Origin: Candidatus Hermodarchaeota archaeon
Lineage (GTDB): Archaea; Asgardarchaeota; Heimdallarchaeia; Hodarchaeales; Hodarchaeaceae
Assembly (NCBI GenBank): GCA_048886185.1
Contig: JBHLKY010000014.1
Coordinates: forward strand, 1 to 32,000
Length of the DNA: 32,000 nucleotides
Direction: 5' to 3'
Shown here: positions 426-24,505 of the stretch, in pieces
How the letters are laid out: the number at the start of each line of letters is the position of its first letter
Position numbering within the stretch: the stretch's first letter is position 1
The notes under the pieces: model-generated
What the model was told of the DNA's origin: nothing
Database searches by the model: none
The model's input: the letters and a program-made list of their open reading frames with translations, nothing else
Made by a program: the position numbers and the translations under genes

Positions 426-2168
426 TCACATATAATAAGTGCCTTCTTTTTCTTTTAACCGTGTTATTGTGACTTTAAGTGTTTCTTTTAGGGTATACAG
501 CAAGTTAAATCCCTTTTGGGTGATGGTATAGTTTCTATAGCGGCCATCTCGAAGGACTTGGGATGATACATATGATTCGATATAATCTAGTTCCTTTAAT
601 TTCTTGATTTCTTTTGACAGAGTTGAGGCTGCGATATCTAAGCTTTGGGCTAATTTTGCTGGGTTGGTATCGCTTGGATCTTGATAAGCGATCTCAATCA
701 GTGTTAAGATGGTTCGCCATTTCATCCCTGACTGGAGGTCATTCTTTATATCAGAGGGAAAGAATTCGACCAGAGAGATCGGTTCAGCAGATTCTAAGAG
801 GGGGACTGTGATTGGTTGAGGTAGTACTCTTGTCTGTAGATTTTCAATTCCTACTACGAGTTTATCATAAATGGGTCTTATTCTCTCGATTTGTTCTGTT
901 GTATTTAATTCTGTAAAAGGTTCTTCTGACTCATCTTCATGTTTTTTCTCTCTTGACCTGAAGAGGTAATAACTTCCGCTGATGCTCCCTCCCAATGCTA
1001 CTAGAAGGATTCCAAGAAAGATTATAATCCCTAAATTATCGGGGGATTTTTGTGCATTCTCTATCGCATCAGGAGAATATTCTGCTAGTGGATATGGATC
1101 AGTATTATTGCTTTTGCCATCAAGTTGATACGACGTGTCTATGATCAAATCTTCATCCAGATCAAGAAGTGGCTGATCATCCCAATAATTATATTGAAAG
1201 ATATTATTGTTTCCGTCATCAACAGCTTGTGTTTCTCCTCCGTTATTTCCGGCAAAATTATTGAATTGGATTGAATTATCGTTTGAGCCTAGGGTGGCTA
1301 AGATCCCATACTCTTGATTGTCAGTAATATTATTGTAATTAAGCCTGTTTCTTGAGGCGTATTCTAGACGGATCCCATATTTTTGGTTCAGTTGGATGGT
1401 ATTATTTGTTATCGTGTTATCATGGGCCGAGTTTAGGAGATTAATCCCATAAATGCTTTTGAACAATTCATTTTCTGTTATCACGGTTTTGGAGGTATGA
1501 TCTAGGAGGATGTTGTTTTGAGTATGCTTTCCATCCTGATGGTCGTGAATGGAGTTATTACTAACTCTTATCGTCTGACTATTCTTTATGTGTATCCCAT
1601 TTCCATTATTTTTTTGGACAACATTAGATGTGATATTACTATTGATTACTCTCTCGAAAAATATCCCAAATTTATTGTTTAATGTGATGTTATTGTTTAT
1701 ACAAATAATTTCAGAGGTATTACTAACTCTTATTCCATCCTCACAATTACTGATTAGGTTTTTTTCTATTCTAGCGTGTTGAACATTTGAAAGGCGGATC
1801 CCTGATGATGCTGTGGTCGATCCATCCAGATAATTATTAATAATATGGAAAGTGACTGTTGTATTGTTGATTGATATTAAATCCCCGTTTGTTGCGGTGA
1901 TTTCGAGTCCTTCAATCCGATAGGGATCTTCCATACTCCCAGACCCTAAGAACCCGAGTTCTGTAAATTGGCTATCAGAGGTGATCAAAATGGGATCATG
2001 GGGAGTTTTTGTCTCAATTTTTCCTCTTTTTGTTTGTAATTCTTCCAATGGAATGACTGGATCACTAAGTTCACTAGTTTCCACCTTGATTCGGATATTT
2101 GTCTCATCACTTGTACCTATCATTATTATTATAATGAATATTGTGATTAACAGCTTATATTGACTCAA
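426..2168 (-). CDS. Membrane-anchored NosD-like right-handed beta-helix protein with a C-terminal cytoplasmic MarR-like winged helix
   Basis: TTG start; N-terminal hydrophobic signal (LLITIFIIIIMIG); Asn-rich beta-helix repeats (NNxIxxNxxxGI); NosD-type YWDD...DPYPL motif; TM LGIIIFLGILLVALGGSISGSYYLF followed by RSREKK; wHTH LAQSLDIAASTLSKEIKKLKELDYI...DGRYRNYTITQKG. Confidence 0.85.
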   Translation of the reverse strand: MSQYKLLITIFIIIIMIGTSDETNIRIKVETSELSDPVIPLEELQTKRGKIETKTPHDPILITSDSQFTELGFLGSGSMEDPYRIEGLEITATNGDLISINNTTVTFHIINNYLDGSTTASSGIRLSNVQHARIEKNLISNCEDGIRVSNTSEIICINNNITLNNKFGIFFERVINSNITSNVVQKNNGNGIHIKNSQTIRVSNNSIHDHQDGKHTQNNILLDHTSKTVITENELFKSIYGINLLNSAHDNTITNNTIQLNQKYGIRLEYASRNRLNYNNITDNQEYGILATLGSNDNSIQFNNFAGNNGGETQAVDDGNNNIFQYNYWDDQPLLDLDEDLIIDTSYQLDGKSNNTDPYPLAEYSPDAIENAQKSPDNLGIIIFLGILLVALGGSISGSYYLFRSREKKHEDESEEPFTELNTTEQIERIRPIYDKLVVGIENLQTRVLPQPITVPLLESAEPISLVEFFPSDIKNDLQSGMKWRTILTLIEIAYQDPSDTNPAKLAQSLDIAASTLSKEIKKLKELDYIESYVSSQVLRDGRYRNYTITQKGFNLLYTLKETLKVTITRLKEKEGTYYM

Positions 2169-4552: not shown

Positions 4553-5494
4553 TTAACTCTTTTTTTTCCGATTGGTTGTTTTCTTGTATAGCTCTGCTAG
4601 ATCATCTAGATCAACATCATCTATTAAATCCTTGATTTCTTTATCAAGATTAGATTTCTTACTCACTGAAGAATTTGCTTTAATCTCATCTAGTACCGTT
4701 CTTAGTTCTTCTTCAAAGCTTCCTTTCACTAGCACAGAACTCTGTAATTTTGCTTGTCCCTTTTGAGTCAACCTGTAAACTTGATCGTGCTTGACAAATT
4801 CAATCTCCCCACTAGCTAATAATTGACGTAGAATTCTCATAATTTTATCTCTATCGTACTCCACTTGTCCTGTTTTCGAGATAATCTCTAATTGACCGAG
4901 TATTGATAAGATAGGCAGTCCCGTTTCATGACCATTAATCATATCCAAGATGTAAATGGTGAGGAACCTCGAGAGTCTGTCGGGTAGTGTTTGATCTTCT
5001 TCTGTTAACCGATTCTTGATCCAAGTAAGGACAAGTTCAAAATCCTGTGGTCTTTGTGCTGTACTCGAAAACACCCTATGTGGTCGATCAAGCCTGTTTA
5101 GGATATCTAACTGTTCGATAATGCCTGAAGGATGGACTTGAGCGATATCCTTCTTATGGAAAAGAATCGCCAAGGGTTTTCCTATTGAATGTGGGTGATT
5201 AAGTATTTTCTCAAATTCAGGGATTACTTCTGAAAACCTTCCTTCATCACTGCCATCAATGACGAAGATTATAGCCTCTACATATTCAATAAATTTCGAC
5301 ACAAAACCTCTTACTTCTTTTCTTCCCCCAACTTCTATGATATTGAAAGTTGTTGTATTAAGTGTAATTTCCGATGTATGTTGAGCTGTAGCAGGGGTTC
5401 CTTGAGTGAATAGTCCTTGCTGAAAAGAGTTAATCAAGGTAGATTTTCCACTTTTTTCTAATCCATATAATAGTACCTGAATAGAAATTGGCAG
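4553..5494 (-). CDS. Arf-like small GTPase fused to a C-terminal winged helix; start extended to CTG at 5494 (313 aa)
   Basis: The frame continues upstream of the ORF-track TTG (5437) as CTG CCA ATT TCT ATT CAG GTA CTA TTA TAT GGA TTA GAA AAA AGT GGA AAA TCT ACC = (M)PISIQVLLYGLEKSGKST (P-loop), bounded by TAG. G3 is IEVGG; IIFVIDGSD; G4 is FHKKD; wHTH DRDKIMRILRQLLASGEI...YRLTQKG. Confidence 0.85.
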   Translation of the reverse strand: MPISIQVLLYGLEKSGKSTLINSFQQGLFTQGTPATAQHTSEITLNTTTFNIIEVGGRKEVRGFVSKFIEYVEAIIFVIDGSDEGRFSEVIPEFEKILNHPHSIGKPLAILFHKKDIAQVHPSGIIEQLDILNRLDRPHRVFSSTAQRPQDFELVLTWIKNRLTEEDQTLPDRLSRFLTIYILDMINGHETGLPILSILGQLEIISKTGQVEYDRDKIMRILRQLLASGEIEFVKHDQVYRLTQKGQAKLQSSVLVKGSFEEELRTVLDEIKANSSVSKKSNLDKEIKDLIDDVDLDDLAELYKKTTNRKKKS

Positions 5495-20449: not shown

Positions 20450-21607
20450 TTGGAAAGGTTATCACAAGAGATAGAAGAAATTTTCACTTTTGAACCACTC
20501 ATTATGGATGCCTTAAACCATAGCGTTACAGATCAACATGTTCGTGTTTTAGCGATGATGTTCAAACTTGGTGGTTATACCACTCTAAATGTTTTAACAA
20601 AAAAATTAGCCATCGCACAACCAACCGTTAGTAAGAGAGTAGCAGAGCTAGAAGACATGGGATTTATCAGAAAAAATTCAGAATTGAAACCTAAAGTGCT
20701 TGTTCTCCTTCTAACTGTTGAAGATCTTAAAACCAGATTAAATCTGAAGATTACTTCTCAACGGGCTGCTTCATCCTTCTTGCAAGAAATCTCACAAATC
20801 AAAGATAAACAGGCAATAATAGATGCTTTTAACAAAGCAATAAAGCTACTCTATCCCAATGAAGAATTGATAGCAAAAATGATTGTTTTTACTTATCTTC
20901 ATGGTACGATTCAGAGAAATGATCTAATCAAATTAATAGATCCCTCGGGAAAGACTATAATGAAATTAAATCGTGATATAGATGTAATATTGACGCTATA
21001 TCCAACGATCTTTAATACAATTTATTATAAATACCAAAAATCAAGTACATTTATTCAACCACGCCTCCCTCTGGATTCCTTTGCGAAAGCTCGGCTTATA
21101 CTTCTTGAATCAATACATTATAATCAAAATCTACTATTAGAGAGAATCGGTCAATTCATTGGGATTGAATTTGATGCAATTATTCCTCATCAACCATTAC
21201 CAAGTATTCCTGACATTGAACACCGAATAAATACCTGTTTAAAATATTATGAGACAGTAAAAATTATAGATAACTCTATTTATCAAAATAGATTTGTAAA
21301 TGGAGGATTATTAGAACTAATAGCATCAAGTAATCATTTTACAAATAATCACAACTTAAAAATGTTAACAAACCATTCCATTAGCATACCGTCAAATATG
21401 ATCTTGTCACAGATTAAACAAAAGCCTATAACAGAACCTATTAATCGCGACTACATTACACGTGATTTTATTATCTTTGAAGAACATGGATGTCTAGTTA
21501 TCCCTTCTAAAGTTAGTAGTCCTCCCTATTATCATATTGCACCTAAATTTACAAAAACTATTTCAAATATCTTTAACACAAATTGGAGGAGTACTAATGC
21601 TGTCTGA
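20450..21607 (+). CDS. TrmB-like transcriptional regulator with two wHTH/coiled-coil modules and a C-terminal PLD-like effector domain
   Basis: LTKKLAIAQPTVSKRVAELEDMGFI (HTH); a second, degenerate module ending FIQPRLPLDSFAKARL; C-terminal RDFIIFEEHGCLVIP...APKFTKTISNIFNTNW as in TrmB effector domains; TTG start. Confidence 0.7.
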   Translation: MERLSQEIEEIFTFEPLIMDALNHSVTDQHVRVLAMMFKLGGYTTLNVLTKKLAIAQPTVSKRVAELEDMGFIRKNSELKPKVLVLLLTVEDLKTRLNLKITSQRAASSFLQEISQIKDKQAIIDAFNKAIKLLYPNEELIAKMIVFTYLHGTIQRNDLIKLIDPSGKTIMKLNRDIDVILTLYPTIFNTIYYKYQKSSTFIQPRLPLDSFAKARLILLESIHYNQNLLLERIGQFIGIEFDAIIPHQPLPSIPDIEHRINTCLKYYETVKIIDNSIYQNRFVNGGLLELIASSNHFTNNHNLKMLTNHSISIPSNMILSQIKQKPITEPINRDYITRDFIIFEEHGCLVIPSKVSSPPYYHIAPKFTKTISNIFNTNWRSTNAV

Positions 21608-22181
21608 ATTTTTAAGAATGATTAAAGGCTTTTTATTAGTAATTGGCCCAACTAAAGCTGGGAAAACAAGCATTTTGAGACGACTGGTAACGGGGGAATT
21701 TACAGATCAAGAACCAACACTCGGATTTCGTGAAGAAACCATAGCAAAAGTTAGAATTATAGAGATTGGAGGACAGAGAGATTTTAAAAAGTATTGGACT
21801 GAAGCCCTTAATCAGAACCCAGTACACATTTTTTTTGTTATTGATGTGACAAGTAAAACCGATTTTAACGACTTTAATATTTTTGTTAAGGAAAATCAGA
21901 AGAGATTCCCCGAAATATTAGAACATACAATCTTAATTGTAAATAAAATGGATTTAGTCTCTGCATTGCCACCTTATATCCTTAAAAACAATCAAATTAT
22001 CGAATGCAGTGCTAAAACGGGGGAAGGTTTACTCGATTTATTGGAACTAATAGCTAATTTCAAGGATGTAGCTGAAGCTAAGATTTTAATCAACCATAGC
22101 GAGAGAGAAGATAAAATAAGTGAAAATGAAGATAAAGAAATAGCTAAAGCTATTTTAAAAAAGTATGAAGGGAAATTTTAA
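21597..22181 (+). CDS. Arf-like small GTPase (start moved to ATG 21597, 194 aa)
   Basis: GPTKAGKT (G1), EPTLGF (G2/switch I), IEIGGQ...YW (G3 variant), FFVIDV, NKMD (G4), CSAK (G5). GGAGG Shine-Dalgarno 6 nt before the ATG; 11-nt overlap with the upstream regulator. Confidence 0.9.
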   Translation: MLSEFLRMIKGFLLVIGPTKAGKTSILRRLVTGEFTDQEPTLGFREETIAKVRIIEIGGQRDFKKYWTEALNQNPVHIFFVIDVTSKTDFNDFNIFVKENQKRFPEILEHTILIVNKMDLVSALPPYILKNNQIIECSAKTGEGLLDLLELIANFKDVAEAKILINHSEREDKISENEDKEIAKAILKKYEGKF

Positions 22182-22213: not shown

Positions 22214-24505
22214 TCATGTTTTTGATAGTTCAGAAGTTAGAGATTCCAAGATTATTTCTTGGATTTGTTCTAATTGGTTGATTTTTATATCTGGTATTCC
22301 TTTAATCTTAATAAATATAGATTTGAGGTAATTTGAAACAAAGTTTTTACTTAGTAACATCATTGAATCGAACTGTTTAGGATAGATGAATAGAAAAATC
22401 GCTGGAACCCTTCCTCCCCTACTAATTATTCTTTTATCTGTCATAGATTCATCTTTTAATCTTACTCCATAGGTTATATAATGCCACTCAACGCGTTTTG
22501 CTCCATATATCAACGGTTGAGGAAATGGCCCATAAAAAGTTTCTAATTCACCTTGTTGATACAATACGCCAGAATATTCCAGAATTGAACGAAGTTGCTT
22601 TTCATTCAATGGACATGATTCAGTTTTCTTTTGAATAATCCACCCCTGATCTGAAAATGAACCGAGACATACCTCGACACTAATTTTCTTCTGCTTGAAT
22701 AATCTAATGATCTCTGCTTCACTGAGGTAGAATCTATTATGAATCATTCGCCCAACCATTGATAATAAATAGGTAGATTCTACCGTTTCAGTCATAGGAA
22801 TTTCCTGTTCCTTTAGCTTTTCTAGTTCCCTAATTGGGTACTGTTCTGCTAAGATCTGTTGCTCTAAAGCAATTATATTAGCTAATCGGTTTAAATTCTT
22901 ATTTTTTGCAATATTCCATGCTTTCTCTAAAAGATCTTGTGATTCTATGATTTTCATTTCAATTAAGGATAATTTTGATTGGAGTAAATAGGATTCAGCA
23001 AGTAGAGAAAAAGAATTTTTTTCCTGCGCAATTTTTTCTAGCTTATTTAGCCATTCATAAGCATCAAGTAAGATTTCTTCACTTCTATAGTGATGAAATT
23101 CGTCAATCAATAGCTCAATCACATTTAGAATTGCATCAACAGTAAGTTCAAAATCGATGATTTCTTCTTCAGCCACTTGTTTAAACAGTTTTTGGGCTTC
23201 TCCCCTTTGGATAGCTCTATTTTTTGCTTTTAATAAAGTTGCATATCCTAAAATATAAGTTTGATTCAGCCATTTACTCTTTTCCTCCTCATTAATTTGT
23301 TTTAGTTGTTGAAGATAATCATGCGCATGTTCTAAGTTATTTAAATCGATACTTAACTTGATTAGATTATAATGTGGAAGATAACTGAATCCTCGAAAAG
23401 GATGTGGAGAAATTTTTATCTTTGAGATGTTTTCTAAACATTTCTTATAGAACTTAGAAGCCTGTTTAAATTCTCCCCGAGCATGAAAGATTCTTCCAAT
23501 TTTATTATATGCTTGAGCAGTATTAAATCGACGTATTGCTGGAAAAGTTTCCAAATTTTTCAATGTTTCTTGATAATACTCTAGAGCTTTCTGCAATTCC
23601 CCTTTAATATGATAAATGTCTCCCAATTTATCTAATGATAAAGCGATAAAGTATTTTCTATCATGTTCTTTGTAAATGCTTATACTTTTTTCAAAATAAT
23701 TTAAAGCCTGAGAAAGATCCCCCTTTTGGACACATAATCTACCTAGTGTACCATATGAATGGGCTGTAATTTCTTGATGACCTATTTCCTCACTGATTCT
23801 CTTGCTTTTCTTCAAATAATCAAATGCTAGGTCAACATCCCCCCTATAAAGAAAAATTTCACTAAGCTTCCAGTTTGTGTGCGCAATCCCCCATTTGTTT
23901 TTTATTTCTTTAAAAGTCTGAAGATTTCTTAAATATGTTTGAAGTGCTAAATCTATTTTTCCATCTGAAGCATATATTTCTCCGATAAGATCACCATTTA
24001 GTGCAATCCCAAACTTATTATTGAATTTTCTGAATAATGAATCTGCTTCTTGAACAAATTCTAGGGCTTTTTGATAATCATCGTAGTAATACGTGTAATT
24101 TCTACCTTTGTGATGCATTATCCAGGCTTTTATTCTTTCTTTTTCAGAGGCTAGATCGTTAGGTATTGTTTCGAGTAATTCCTCTGCTTCTTTAATGCTA
24201 TTGAGGCTTTCAGAGTAGTTTTCTGTTATCCAACATGCTAATGCATATTCCCCTAGTGCTTCTATAACCTTTAATGTATTTCCGATTTCTTTCGTTTTCT
24301 GAATCACAGATGGAGTGAAGTTGAAAAGTCGTTTGAATTCTCCCATATCCTTTAAGAGATCTATTTTTTGGAATTGAATGTCTAGAGAGATTTTGTCAGG
24401 TATTCCATTTAGTTTTTCGAGATTTTTCAGGAGAGAGAATGCTTTTTGGTGGTAGCCATCAGTCACTAGTTGTTTTATTCGATCTAATTCCTCTGAAAAG
24501 TTCAT
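22214..24505 (-). CDS. TPR protein with an additional C-terminal alpha/beta domain (longin/uDENN-like)
   Basis: TPR repeats (AHSYGTLGRLCVQKGDLSQALNYFEKS; ALSLDKLGDIYHIKGELQKALEYYQET); shares the AQxxFxxIxEEEI...LNxxELLI segment with the 14880 TPR protein; extra ~160-aa C-terminal domain. Confidence 0.82.
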   Translation of the reverse strand: MNFSEELDRIKQLVTDGYHQKAFSLLKNLEKLNGIPDKISLDIQFQKIDLLKDMGEFKRLFNFTPSVIQKTKEIGNTLKVIEALGEYALACWITENYSESLNSIKEAEELLETIPNDLASEKERIKAWIMHHKGRNYTYYYDDYQKALEFVQEADSLFRKFNNKFGIALNGDLIGEIYASDGKIDLALQTYLRNLQTFKEIKNKWGIAHTNWKLSEIFLYRGDVDLAFDYLKKSKRISEEIGHQEITAHSYGTLGRLCVQKGDLSQALNYFEKSISIYKEHDRKYFIALSLDKLGDIYHIKGELQKALEYYQETLKNLETFPAIRRFNTAQAYNKIGRIFHARGEFKQASKFYKKCLENISKIKISPHPFRGFSYLPHYNLIKLSIDLNNLEHAHDYLQQLKQINEEEKSKWLNQTYILGYATLLKAKNRAIQRGEAQKLFKQVAEEEIIDFELTVDAILNVIELLIDEFHHYRSEEILLDAYEWLNKLEKIAQEKNSFSLLAESYLLQSKLSLIEMKIIESQDLLEKAWNIAKNKNLNRLANIIALEQQILAEQYPIRELEKLKEQEIPMTETVESTYLLSMVGRMIHNRFYLSEAEIIRLFKQKKISVEVCLGSFSDQGWIIQKKTESCPLNEKQLRSILEYSGVLYQQGELETFYGPFPQPLIYGAKRVEWHYITYGVRLKDESMTDKRIISRGGRVPAIFLFIYPKQFDSMMLLSKNFVSNYLKSIFIKIKGIPDIKINQLEQIQEIILESLTSELSKT

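Follow-up and report, generated by a model that had tools for sequence, protein, structure and literature searches.

A longin domain family encoded beside Arf-like GTPase genes in Heimdallarchaeia: a candidate GTPase regulator on exchangeable scaffolds

We analyzed the C-terminal domain of P0001, a tetratricopeptide repeat (TPR) protein encoded on a 32,000-nucleotide stretch of DNA from a Candidatus Hermodarchaeota archaeon (contig JBHLKY010000014.1, positions 1 to 32,000; hereafter, the window). Modeling assigned this domain, which we termed LX, to the longin fold, and its gene converges on the gene of an Arf-family small GTPase. On the basis of the modeled fold and complex, family conservation and gene linkage, we consider it probable that this folliculin (FLCN)-type longin docks via a conserved patch on the Arf-like GTPase encoded by the convergent gene and controls its nucleotide state, most likely as a GTPase-activating protein (GAP) with R692 as the arginine finger. 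An earlier note, made from the letters of the window, had proposed that the TPR protein ends in a longin/uDENN-like domain and regulates the adjacent GTPase. The longin part of this proposal was upheld by the AlphaFold2 (AF2) model and by VIA-align; the uDENN part stands only insofar as uDENN is itself a longin domain, and nothing DENN-like follows it in P0001. The proposed regulation is supported, albeit unproven, by a gene linkage that is retained across Heimdallarchaeial families despite swaps of the scaffold and by a co-fold of the two partners.

Small GTPases number in the dozens in Asgard archaea, which also possess many longin or roadblock proteins. How these GTPases are paired with regulators is a standing question, for which the LX-GTPase pair is a concrete candidate. 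Zhu et al. (2025) searched 52 Asgard proteomes for look-alikes of Arf guanine nucleotide exchange factors (GEFs) and GAPs and concluded that it is still to be determined which proteins regulate the Asgard Arfs (PMC11914678). In the study by Tran et al. (2024), the genome layout of MK-D1 was no help in matching GTPases to regulators (PMC10933270). Asgard longins, FLCN/SMCR8-like ones included, are already known (PMC12290439; PMC10933270), and multidomain longin proteins with TPRs have been mentioned in the ESCRT context (PMC10936438). In the literature cited here, we found no description of the LX family, its motif set or its conserved pairing with Arf-like GTPases, and the ArfR preprint contains no text on gene neighborhoods or operons.

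Fold and sequence family of the LX domain

The strings quoted in the earlier note (VEVCLGSFSDQGWIIQKK, YGPFPQP, WHYITYGVRLKDESMTDKRI and PAIFLFIYP) were all found in the last ~160 residues of P0001, and the interval given there for the domain, 22214-22700, corresponds to residues ~603-763 plus the stop codon. When residues 560-763 were modeled by AF2 from the single sequence, the predicted local distance difference test (pLDDT) score was 42.8 and the model was unusable; with an alignment of 45 LX sequences (A1), the pLDDT was 92.7 and the predicted template modeling score (pTM) was 0.87. The A1-based model contained five strands (model residues 14-21, 24-30, 60-70, 73-87 and 102-112) and three helices (38-54, 113-136 and 145-165). 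Their order, β1-β2-α1-β3-β4-β5-α2-α3 with a five-stranded antiparallel sheet and without an N-terminal helix, is the longin order, and the β-β-α-β-β-β-α succession that had been read from the letters was confirmed by this model. A roadblock/LC7 (MglB-like) fold was rejected, as it starts with a helix, runs α-β-β-α-β-β-β and has no further helices at the C-terminus, which the LX domain does not fit. A tripartite DENN arrangement (uDENN-cDENN-dDENN) was also rejected, as the core and downstream DENN parts are absent and the protein ends after the longin domain.

A Foldseek search against the PDB placed longin chains first with weak scores (best E-value of 1.5e-3, TM-scores of 0.4-0.5) and with PAS/LOV chains interspersed; the longin matches comprised the SEA complex Npr2/3, the Lokiarchaeal longin 8yqg, FLCN/FNIP2 and GATOR1. 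In an exhaustive VIA-align search, the 20 best entries were all longin proteins or longin-containing chains, led by the Lst4 longin (score of 11.7) and the Lokiarchaeal longin 8yqg (11.4) and followed by FLCN (10.1), Npr2/3 (9.6), NPRL (9.3), C9orf72-SMCR8 (9.2), VAMP7 (9.0), sedlin (8.8) and FNIP2 (8.6); roadblock chains scored 6.2-6.9 and DENND1A scored 6.5. Additionally, the top match of an ESM-Atlas shape search was a Heimdallarchaeial cluster in which 23% of the members carried PF11704 (Folliculin), followed by Asgard Arf-longin fusions, C9orf72, Avl9 and Npr2p, while an ESM feature search revealed one neighboring cluster with a 19% NPR2 share and nothing more toward GAP-type families. 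As modeled, the LX domain is a longin and not another fold; it is of the structural type represented by folliculin, NPRL2, SMCR8-C9orf72 and Lst4, and its nearest structural neighbors are GAP-type longins.

An exhaustive HMMER search with P0001 residues 585-763 against 1.84 billion representative sequences yielded 51 LX homologues with E-values of 1e-3 or lower, 31 of which were at or below 1e-10. Their source names are all "hypothetical protein", and the sources are Hodarchaeales, Heimdallarchaeota, Hermodarchaeota or Promethearchaeota. The strongly conserved positions in A1, on which all conservation counts are based, are few, namely G621, G659, P660, P662, D690 and R692 (Table 1); F617 is present in 32 of the 45 sequences. 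The F-x-x-x-G and D...R elements singled out in the earlier note are among these conserved family features, and because these F, G, D and R positions are conserved and 51 representative homologues exist, the LX domain is a conserved unit rather than a chance pattern. Judged by sequence, LX is a family not yet catalogued and nearly confined to Heimdallarchaeia.

The domain occurs in several architectures. It occupies the C-terminus of TPR proteins (6 representatives), NosD β-helix proteins (9) and WD40 proteins (2), and it was also found behind an Ig-like region, as almost the whole of proteins of 174-240 aa, and at the start of longer proteins (350-460 aa), whose C-terminal halves gave no Pfam match. 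One of the N-terminal-LX proteins was likened to Asgard Arf/Rag-longin fusions in a separate ESM feature search (0.90), which we regard as a lead only.

Linkage of LX genes to small GTPase genes

The LX profile matched in 79 of 301 sampled Asgard genomes, nearly all of which are Heimdallarchaeia according to the homologue source names. When the sampled genomes were sorted by family (labels f1, f2 and so on; genera are labeled g1, g7), the domain was found in 20/20 genomes of f1, 2/2 of f2, 29/29 of f3, 3/3 of f6 and 11/11 of f7, and it was sparse elsewhere (f27, 5/7; f14, 1/68; f11, 0/76). We annotated 40 loci with flanks of ~7 kb using hidden Markov models (HMMs) for small GTPases (trained on sequences of the window's genome), for LX and for the TrmB-like protein that is encoded upstream of the GTPase in the window. 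Among the 23 best-scoring loci (L035-L057, all from other genomes), 20 carried a small GTPase gene at a distance of at most 2.3 kb; when the open reading frames (ORFs) of 250 aa or more in the window's own genome were taken as background, such a GTPase stood within 2.5 kb of 8.9% of them. The linked loci span families f1, f2, f3, f7 and f14, and the genes are arranged in three ways, convergently, divergently or overlapping on the same strand. The remaining three loci, which lack a GTPase, lie on an 8.7 kb contig (L047), on a 2.3 kb contig (L049) and in a 12-kb stretch of a long contig (L048). In the 16 lower-scoring loci (L058-L073), the GTPase HMM detected no small GTPase within 7 kb; these loci serve as an internal control and also indicate that not every LX branch is GTPase-linked.

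In genus g1, to which the window belongs (Hodarchaeales by source names), the genes usually stand as they do in the window, with the TrmB-like gene followed by the GTPase gene and the convergent LX gene, and the TrmB-like gene lies directly upstream of the GTPase gene in 14 related loci. In two g1-type loci, the LX genes are divergent from the TrmB-like/GTPase operon, and in an f2 genome (G286), there is a divergent LX-GTPase pair in which no TrmB-like gene was detected. In f3 and f7 (L051-L053, L055 and L056), a second Arf-like GTPase subfamily (N-terminus MSWLxRIFxRK...) is encoded directly upstream on the same strand, and its gene abuts or overlaps that of a 350-365 aa protein starting with LX. 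Tandem LX gene pairs stand beside the TrmB-like/GTPase operon in seven loci (L038, L040-L043, L050 and L054) and recall the longin heterodimers FLCN-FNIP, NPRL2-NPRL3 and C9orf72-SMCR8. The N-terminal part encoded in the conserved slot varies among TPR repeats, a NosD β-helix and a short unannotated region, while the longin is constant; because the N-terminal part varies in the same syntenic slot, the longin is what is kept beside the GTPase.

In the window's own genome, we also observed two weaker LX-like ORFs elsewhere. One (C30:8539-9336, minus strand) is on the same strand as a 325-aa GTPase ORF, which it overlaps, and the other (C63:1963-2916, minus strand) lies 1.7 kb from a divergent Arf-like GTPase.

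Predicted complex and proposed function

The GTPase beside P0001 carries an N-terminal amphipathic helix, a P-loop (GPTKAGKT), a conserved switch-I Thr, a switch-II GGQ, and NKMD and SAK motifs (alignment A4). A profile search of the PDB with this GTPase and its syntenic relatives returned Arl3, Arl1, Arf1 and Arf6 first. The catalytic Gln of the GGQ motif is conserved in at least 90% of the sequences; extrapolating from eukaryotic Arfs, the GTPase would presumably lack an arginine of its own and need one in trans.

The longin domain (A1) was co-folded with the G domain (A4, residues 1-168), GTP and Mg. The co-fold score was 0.63 in three concordant runs, and the controls scored 0.00, 0.35 and 0.00; the mark applied is reached by 58 of 80 solved complexes and by 2 of 110 mismatched pairs. 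The contacts agreed between runs by at least 98%, and the pLDDT of the partners was at least 88. On the longin side, the interface comprised model residues 20 and 22-25 (F617 and D619-W622, including G621), residues 42-53 of helix α1, and residues 93, 95-96 and 98-99 (D690, R692, I693, S695 and R696). On the GTPase side, it comprised residues 19-20 of the P-loop, 37-45 of switch I and 60-63 of switch II, the last including the catalytic Gln. In particular, longin residues 22-25 contacted switch-II residues 60-63, and residues 93 and 95-96 contacted switch-I residue 40. Because longin strands are ordered 2-1-5-4-3, the conserved residues should form one patch, in that the β1-β2 hairpin, the start of β3 and the β4-β5 loop share one end of the sheet. 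In the co-fold, the conserved LX patch falls where contact with the nucleotide face of the GTPase is predicted, which supports binding without showing it.

A GP motif just before β2 and an arginine finger are common to FLCN, NPRL2, SMCR8, C9orf72 and the Asgard Folliculin/SMCR8-type longins, and the GP motif has been proposed as the mark of GAP longins (PMC12290439). In LX, G621 stands at the position of the GP-motif glycine and is invariant; the next residue is W in P0001 and, in the large majority of the family, one of M, L, W or I, and a single GP was seen (P0030). When the LX profile was compared with Asgard PF11704 longins by hhalign, the region from β4 to α3 was in register over 85 columns (E-value of 2.6e-4, probability of 42%), and the D-x-R loop of LX was inserted exactly at the A-R-G loop of the PF11704 longins. 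The profile of the Asgard PF11704 longins does not reach the FLCN chains in the PDB, so the mapping of R692 to R164 of human FLCN rests on the hhalign comparison with the Asgard PF11704 family.

We infer that P0001 binds and regulates the neighboring GTPase and, beyond this, that R692 has a catalytic role and that the activity is that of a GAP rather than a GEF. In the proposed mechanism, the patch formed by the G621 hairpin, the GPxP start of β3 and the D690/R692 loop between β4 and β5 would dock on the P-loop, switch I and switch II, and the docked longin would control the nucleotide state of the GTPase. GTPase activation would be the most likely activity, with R692 acting as the arginine finger. 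The TPR solenoid would be an exchangeable scaffold or adaptor tying the switch to another partner, a role that appears most likely because the TPR part is exchangeable for a β-helix or WD40.

Several points weigh against this assignment. At the sequence level, Pfam gave nothing meaningful for the LX domain alone or for any of the 45 homologous domains even at E-values up to 5, and phmmer and profile searches of PDB sequences gave no longin match, only chance helical matches with E-values of at least 0.15. The link to FLCN-type longins consists of the fold and the one weak profile alignment, and the GP motif is, as far as the alignment goes, only half present. In the co-fold, the contact of R692 in the listed pairs was with switch I, and any reach to the γ-phosphate is putative; D690 and R692 might also have no more than a structural role, as a salt bridge. 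The co-fold was run with custom alignments and a riding ligand, unlike the calibration, and its pass may partly reflect a memory of solved longin-GTPase complexes, which do exist. As for the genes, those of LX and the GTPase in the window are not co-transcribed, because they are convergent. No second LX gene was found in the window with the LX HMM, in contrast to the eukaryotic longin GAPs, which act as longin heterodimers. Finally, 15 of the 16 lower-scoring loci (L059-L073; f3, mostly g7) form a well-conserved subfamily of ~355-aa proteins with N-terminal LX that is GTPase-free in 15/15 cases. Because no small GTPase lies within about 7 kb of its genes, the partners and role of this subfamily may differ.

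The longin could bind the same GTPase but act as a GEF, with the Mg/P-loop site being perturbed by D690 or by the hairpin. Most eukaryotic longin/DENN modules are GEFs (DENN, Mon1-Ccz1 and the TRAPP core), and both this general tendency and the incomplete GP motif of LX would suit such a role. Nevertheless, we regard it as unlikely and favor a GAP with an R692 finger, because the closest folds are those of GAP longins, because R692 is the single conserved Arg in the loop that hhalign sets on the ARG loop of folliculin-type longins, and because the client GTPase has the catalytic Gln.

It appears less likely still that the longin is a non-catalytic platform, that is, an effector, a dimerization module or an adaptor through which the TPR or β-helix scaffold is brought to the GTP-bound GTPase or some other partner while the nucleotide state is unchanged. 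Non-catalytic longins are found in SNAREs, AP sigma/mu subunits and SRP receptors, and an effector role would also fit the GTPase linkage. However, the most conserved residues lie in the predicted switch contact and not on the sheet edge, and if the GTPase were not the partner, it would be difficult to account for how tightly and how repeatedly the closest relatives are linked to one. A PAS/GAF-like small-molecule sensor at the end of the TPR protein, with an incidental GTPase neighbor, is highly improbable, since the exhaustive VIA-align search decides for longins, even though the Foldseek list contains PAS, LOV and GAF-like chains, which also turn up further down in the VIA-align list.

A broader proposal, which we put forward as possible but doubtful, is that the LX longins are the native GAPs of Heimdallarchaeial Arf-family GTPases and an archaeal sister or precursor of the FLCN/NPRL2/SMCR8 longin GAPs, already coupled to exchangeable solenoid scaffolds (TPR, β-helix and WD40). 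If true, an Arf switch, a longin GAP and a solenoid adaptor would together constitute a pre-eukaryotic building plan resembling coat/adaptor logic, which in Hodarchaeales would be further wired to a TrmB-like DNA-binding protein. At a minimum, conserved adjacency, a conserved patch and a predicted switch interface connect one unannotated longin family with particular Arf-like GTPases of Heimdallarchaeia, and this family offers a testable candidate for a native regulator of an Asgard Arf GTPase, within the archaea most closely related to eukaryotes. The protein pair and residues R692, D690 and G621 bear on whether longin-based GTPase regulation, following the logic of FLCN, GATOR1 and C9orf72, predates eukaryotes.

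Related longin systems and setting of the gene

The closest known systems are FLCN-FNIP (Lst7-Lst4) acting on RagC/Gtr2, NPRL2-NPRL3 (Npr2-Npr3, GATOR1) acting on RagA/Gtr1, and C9orf72-SMCR8 acting on Arf1. Compared with these eukaryotic longin GAP complexes, LX differs in several respects. A Pfam scan of the domain and its 45 homologues revealed no membership in PF11704, PF06218 (NPR2) or the C9orf72-like families, and Pfam NPR2 had no match in the window's own genome. LX has a hydrophobic residue in place of the Pro of the GP motif and a GPxP signature of its own. In addition, LX is C-terminal to a TPR or β-helix solenoid, whereas the eukaryotic longins are N-terminal to a DENN-like domain.

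The Asgard Folliculin/SMCR8-type longins (PMC12290439) share the lineage (Hodarchaeales/Heimdallarchaeia) and the fold class of LX, and both are candidate regulators of Asgard Arf/Rag GTPases. The Folliculin-type proteins are characterized by a Pfam Folliculin match, HGP and D-P-x-A-R-G motifs, a length of ~430 aa and an N-terminal longin, none of which applies to LX; conversely, it is LX and not the Folliculin-type family that is physically linked to Arf-like GTPase genes. The window's own genome also encodes a Folliculin-type longin (contig C6, ~93400-94700; L075:625-1938, minus strand) of 437 aa, which matches Pfam Folliculin with 29.1 bits, above the cut-off, and carries HGP and D-P-E-A-R-G-R-N-R motifs; this family is widespread in Hodarchaeales. 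The C6 gene adjoins a 158-aa ORF (L075:2508-2984, minus strand) that looks roadblock-like by eye.

The Lokiarchaeal Roadblock-Longin (PDB 8yqg) and the Asgard GTPase-longin/roadblock fusions (PMC10933270; PDB 9m28, LokiRagM) have roadblock or GTPase partners, whereas LX is joined to TPR or β-helix parts. GTPase genes in MK-D1 are generally not in operons with longin genes (PMC10933270), in contrast to the conserved LX-GTPase linkage. Relative to the DENN-domain Rab GEFs, such as DENND1A/Rab35, LX lacks the core and downstream DENN parts, and its similarity to them is clearly below that to the FLCN/Lst4 type.

The genome from which the window derives is 4.84 Mb in size and 96% complete, and the homologues of the window's genes are named as Hodarchaeales or Heimdallarchaeota. 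The window contains an ESCRT cluster (Vps4, ESCRT-II and Snf7), RadA and two Arf-family GTPases, the second of which is at 4553-5437. The orthologues of P0001 in congeneric genomes have 760-764 aa; the representative P0005, with 762 aa, is 76% identical to P0001 in the longin domain. The features of the locus are listed in Table 1.

Table 1. Coordinates of P0001, its parts and the neighboring genes in the window
Feature	Position	Strand	Evidence
TPR-longin gene (P0001, 763 aa)	22214..24505	-	open frame without internal stops
TPR repeat region, aa ~100-440	23186..24208	-	Pfam TPR_12 2.8e-32, TPR_MalT 3.6e-21, other TPR models
Helical linker, aa ~441-597, present also in paralogue P0004	22715..23185	-	BLASTP alignment with P0004
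C-terminal longin domain LX, aa 598-763	22217..22714	-	stop codon 22214-22216
Codon of G621, invariant glycine in the β1-β2 hairpin	22643..22645	-	G 45/45
G659-P660-F661-P662, family signature at the start of β3	22520..22531	-	G 45/45, P 41/45, P 45/45
D690-K691-R692, β4-β5 loop; R692 is the candidate arginine finger	22430..22438	-	D 42/45, R 40/45
Spacer of 32 nt between the two convergent stop codons	22182..22213	.	ORF ends
Arf-family small GTPase, 194 aa from the ATG at 21597	21597..22181	+	Pfam Arf 5.3e-15
TrmB/MarR-like winged-helix protein	20450..21607	+	weak Pfam MarR_2, HTH_24 and TrmB matches

The TrmB-like and GTPase genes overlap at the start of the latter and make up a two-gene operon, and the stop codon of the GTPase lies as close to that of P0001 as the earlier note had stated (GTPase ORF end at 22181, P0001 stop starting at 22214). 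The helical linker of P0001 gave no Pfam domain match. The second TPR protein of the window (P0004, 14880-16934, minus strand) is a true paralogue, with 28% identity over 472 aa in BLASTP (E-value of 4e-39). The alignment covers the TPR and helical parts and stops at residue 582 of P0001; P0004 had no match to the longin domain profile, in agreement with the earlier statement that this paralogue is without the domain.

The Hodarchaeales-type GTPases, including that of the window (C-terminal tail at 22100-22181), end in a variable acidic/Ser-rich linker followed by [IL][LI]K[KE][YF]x[GD]KF-COOH, and this conserved tail was also observed in L037, L039-L046, L050 and L054. A role of the tail as a TPR-specific ligand was rejected, as it is equally present beside β-helix neighbors; it may bind the TrmB-like partner, the longin or the membrane.

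Additionally, the window encodes a NosD-type β-helix protein with a C-terminal MarR-like winged helix (426-2168, minus strand). The NosD β-helix scaffold is the one fused to LX in the 9 representative proteins mentioned above, and in sister genomes it fills the syntenic slot of the TPR protein.

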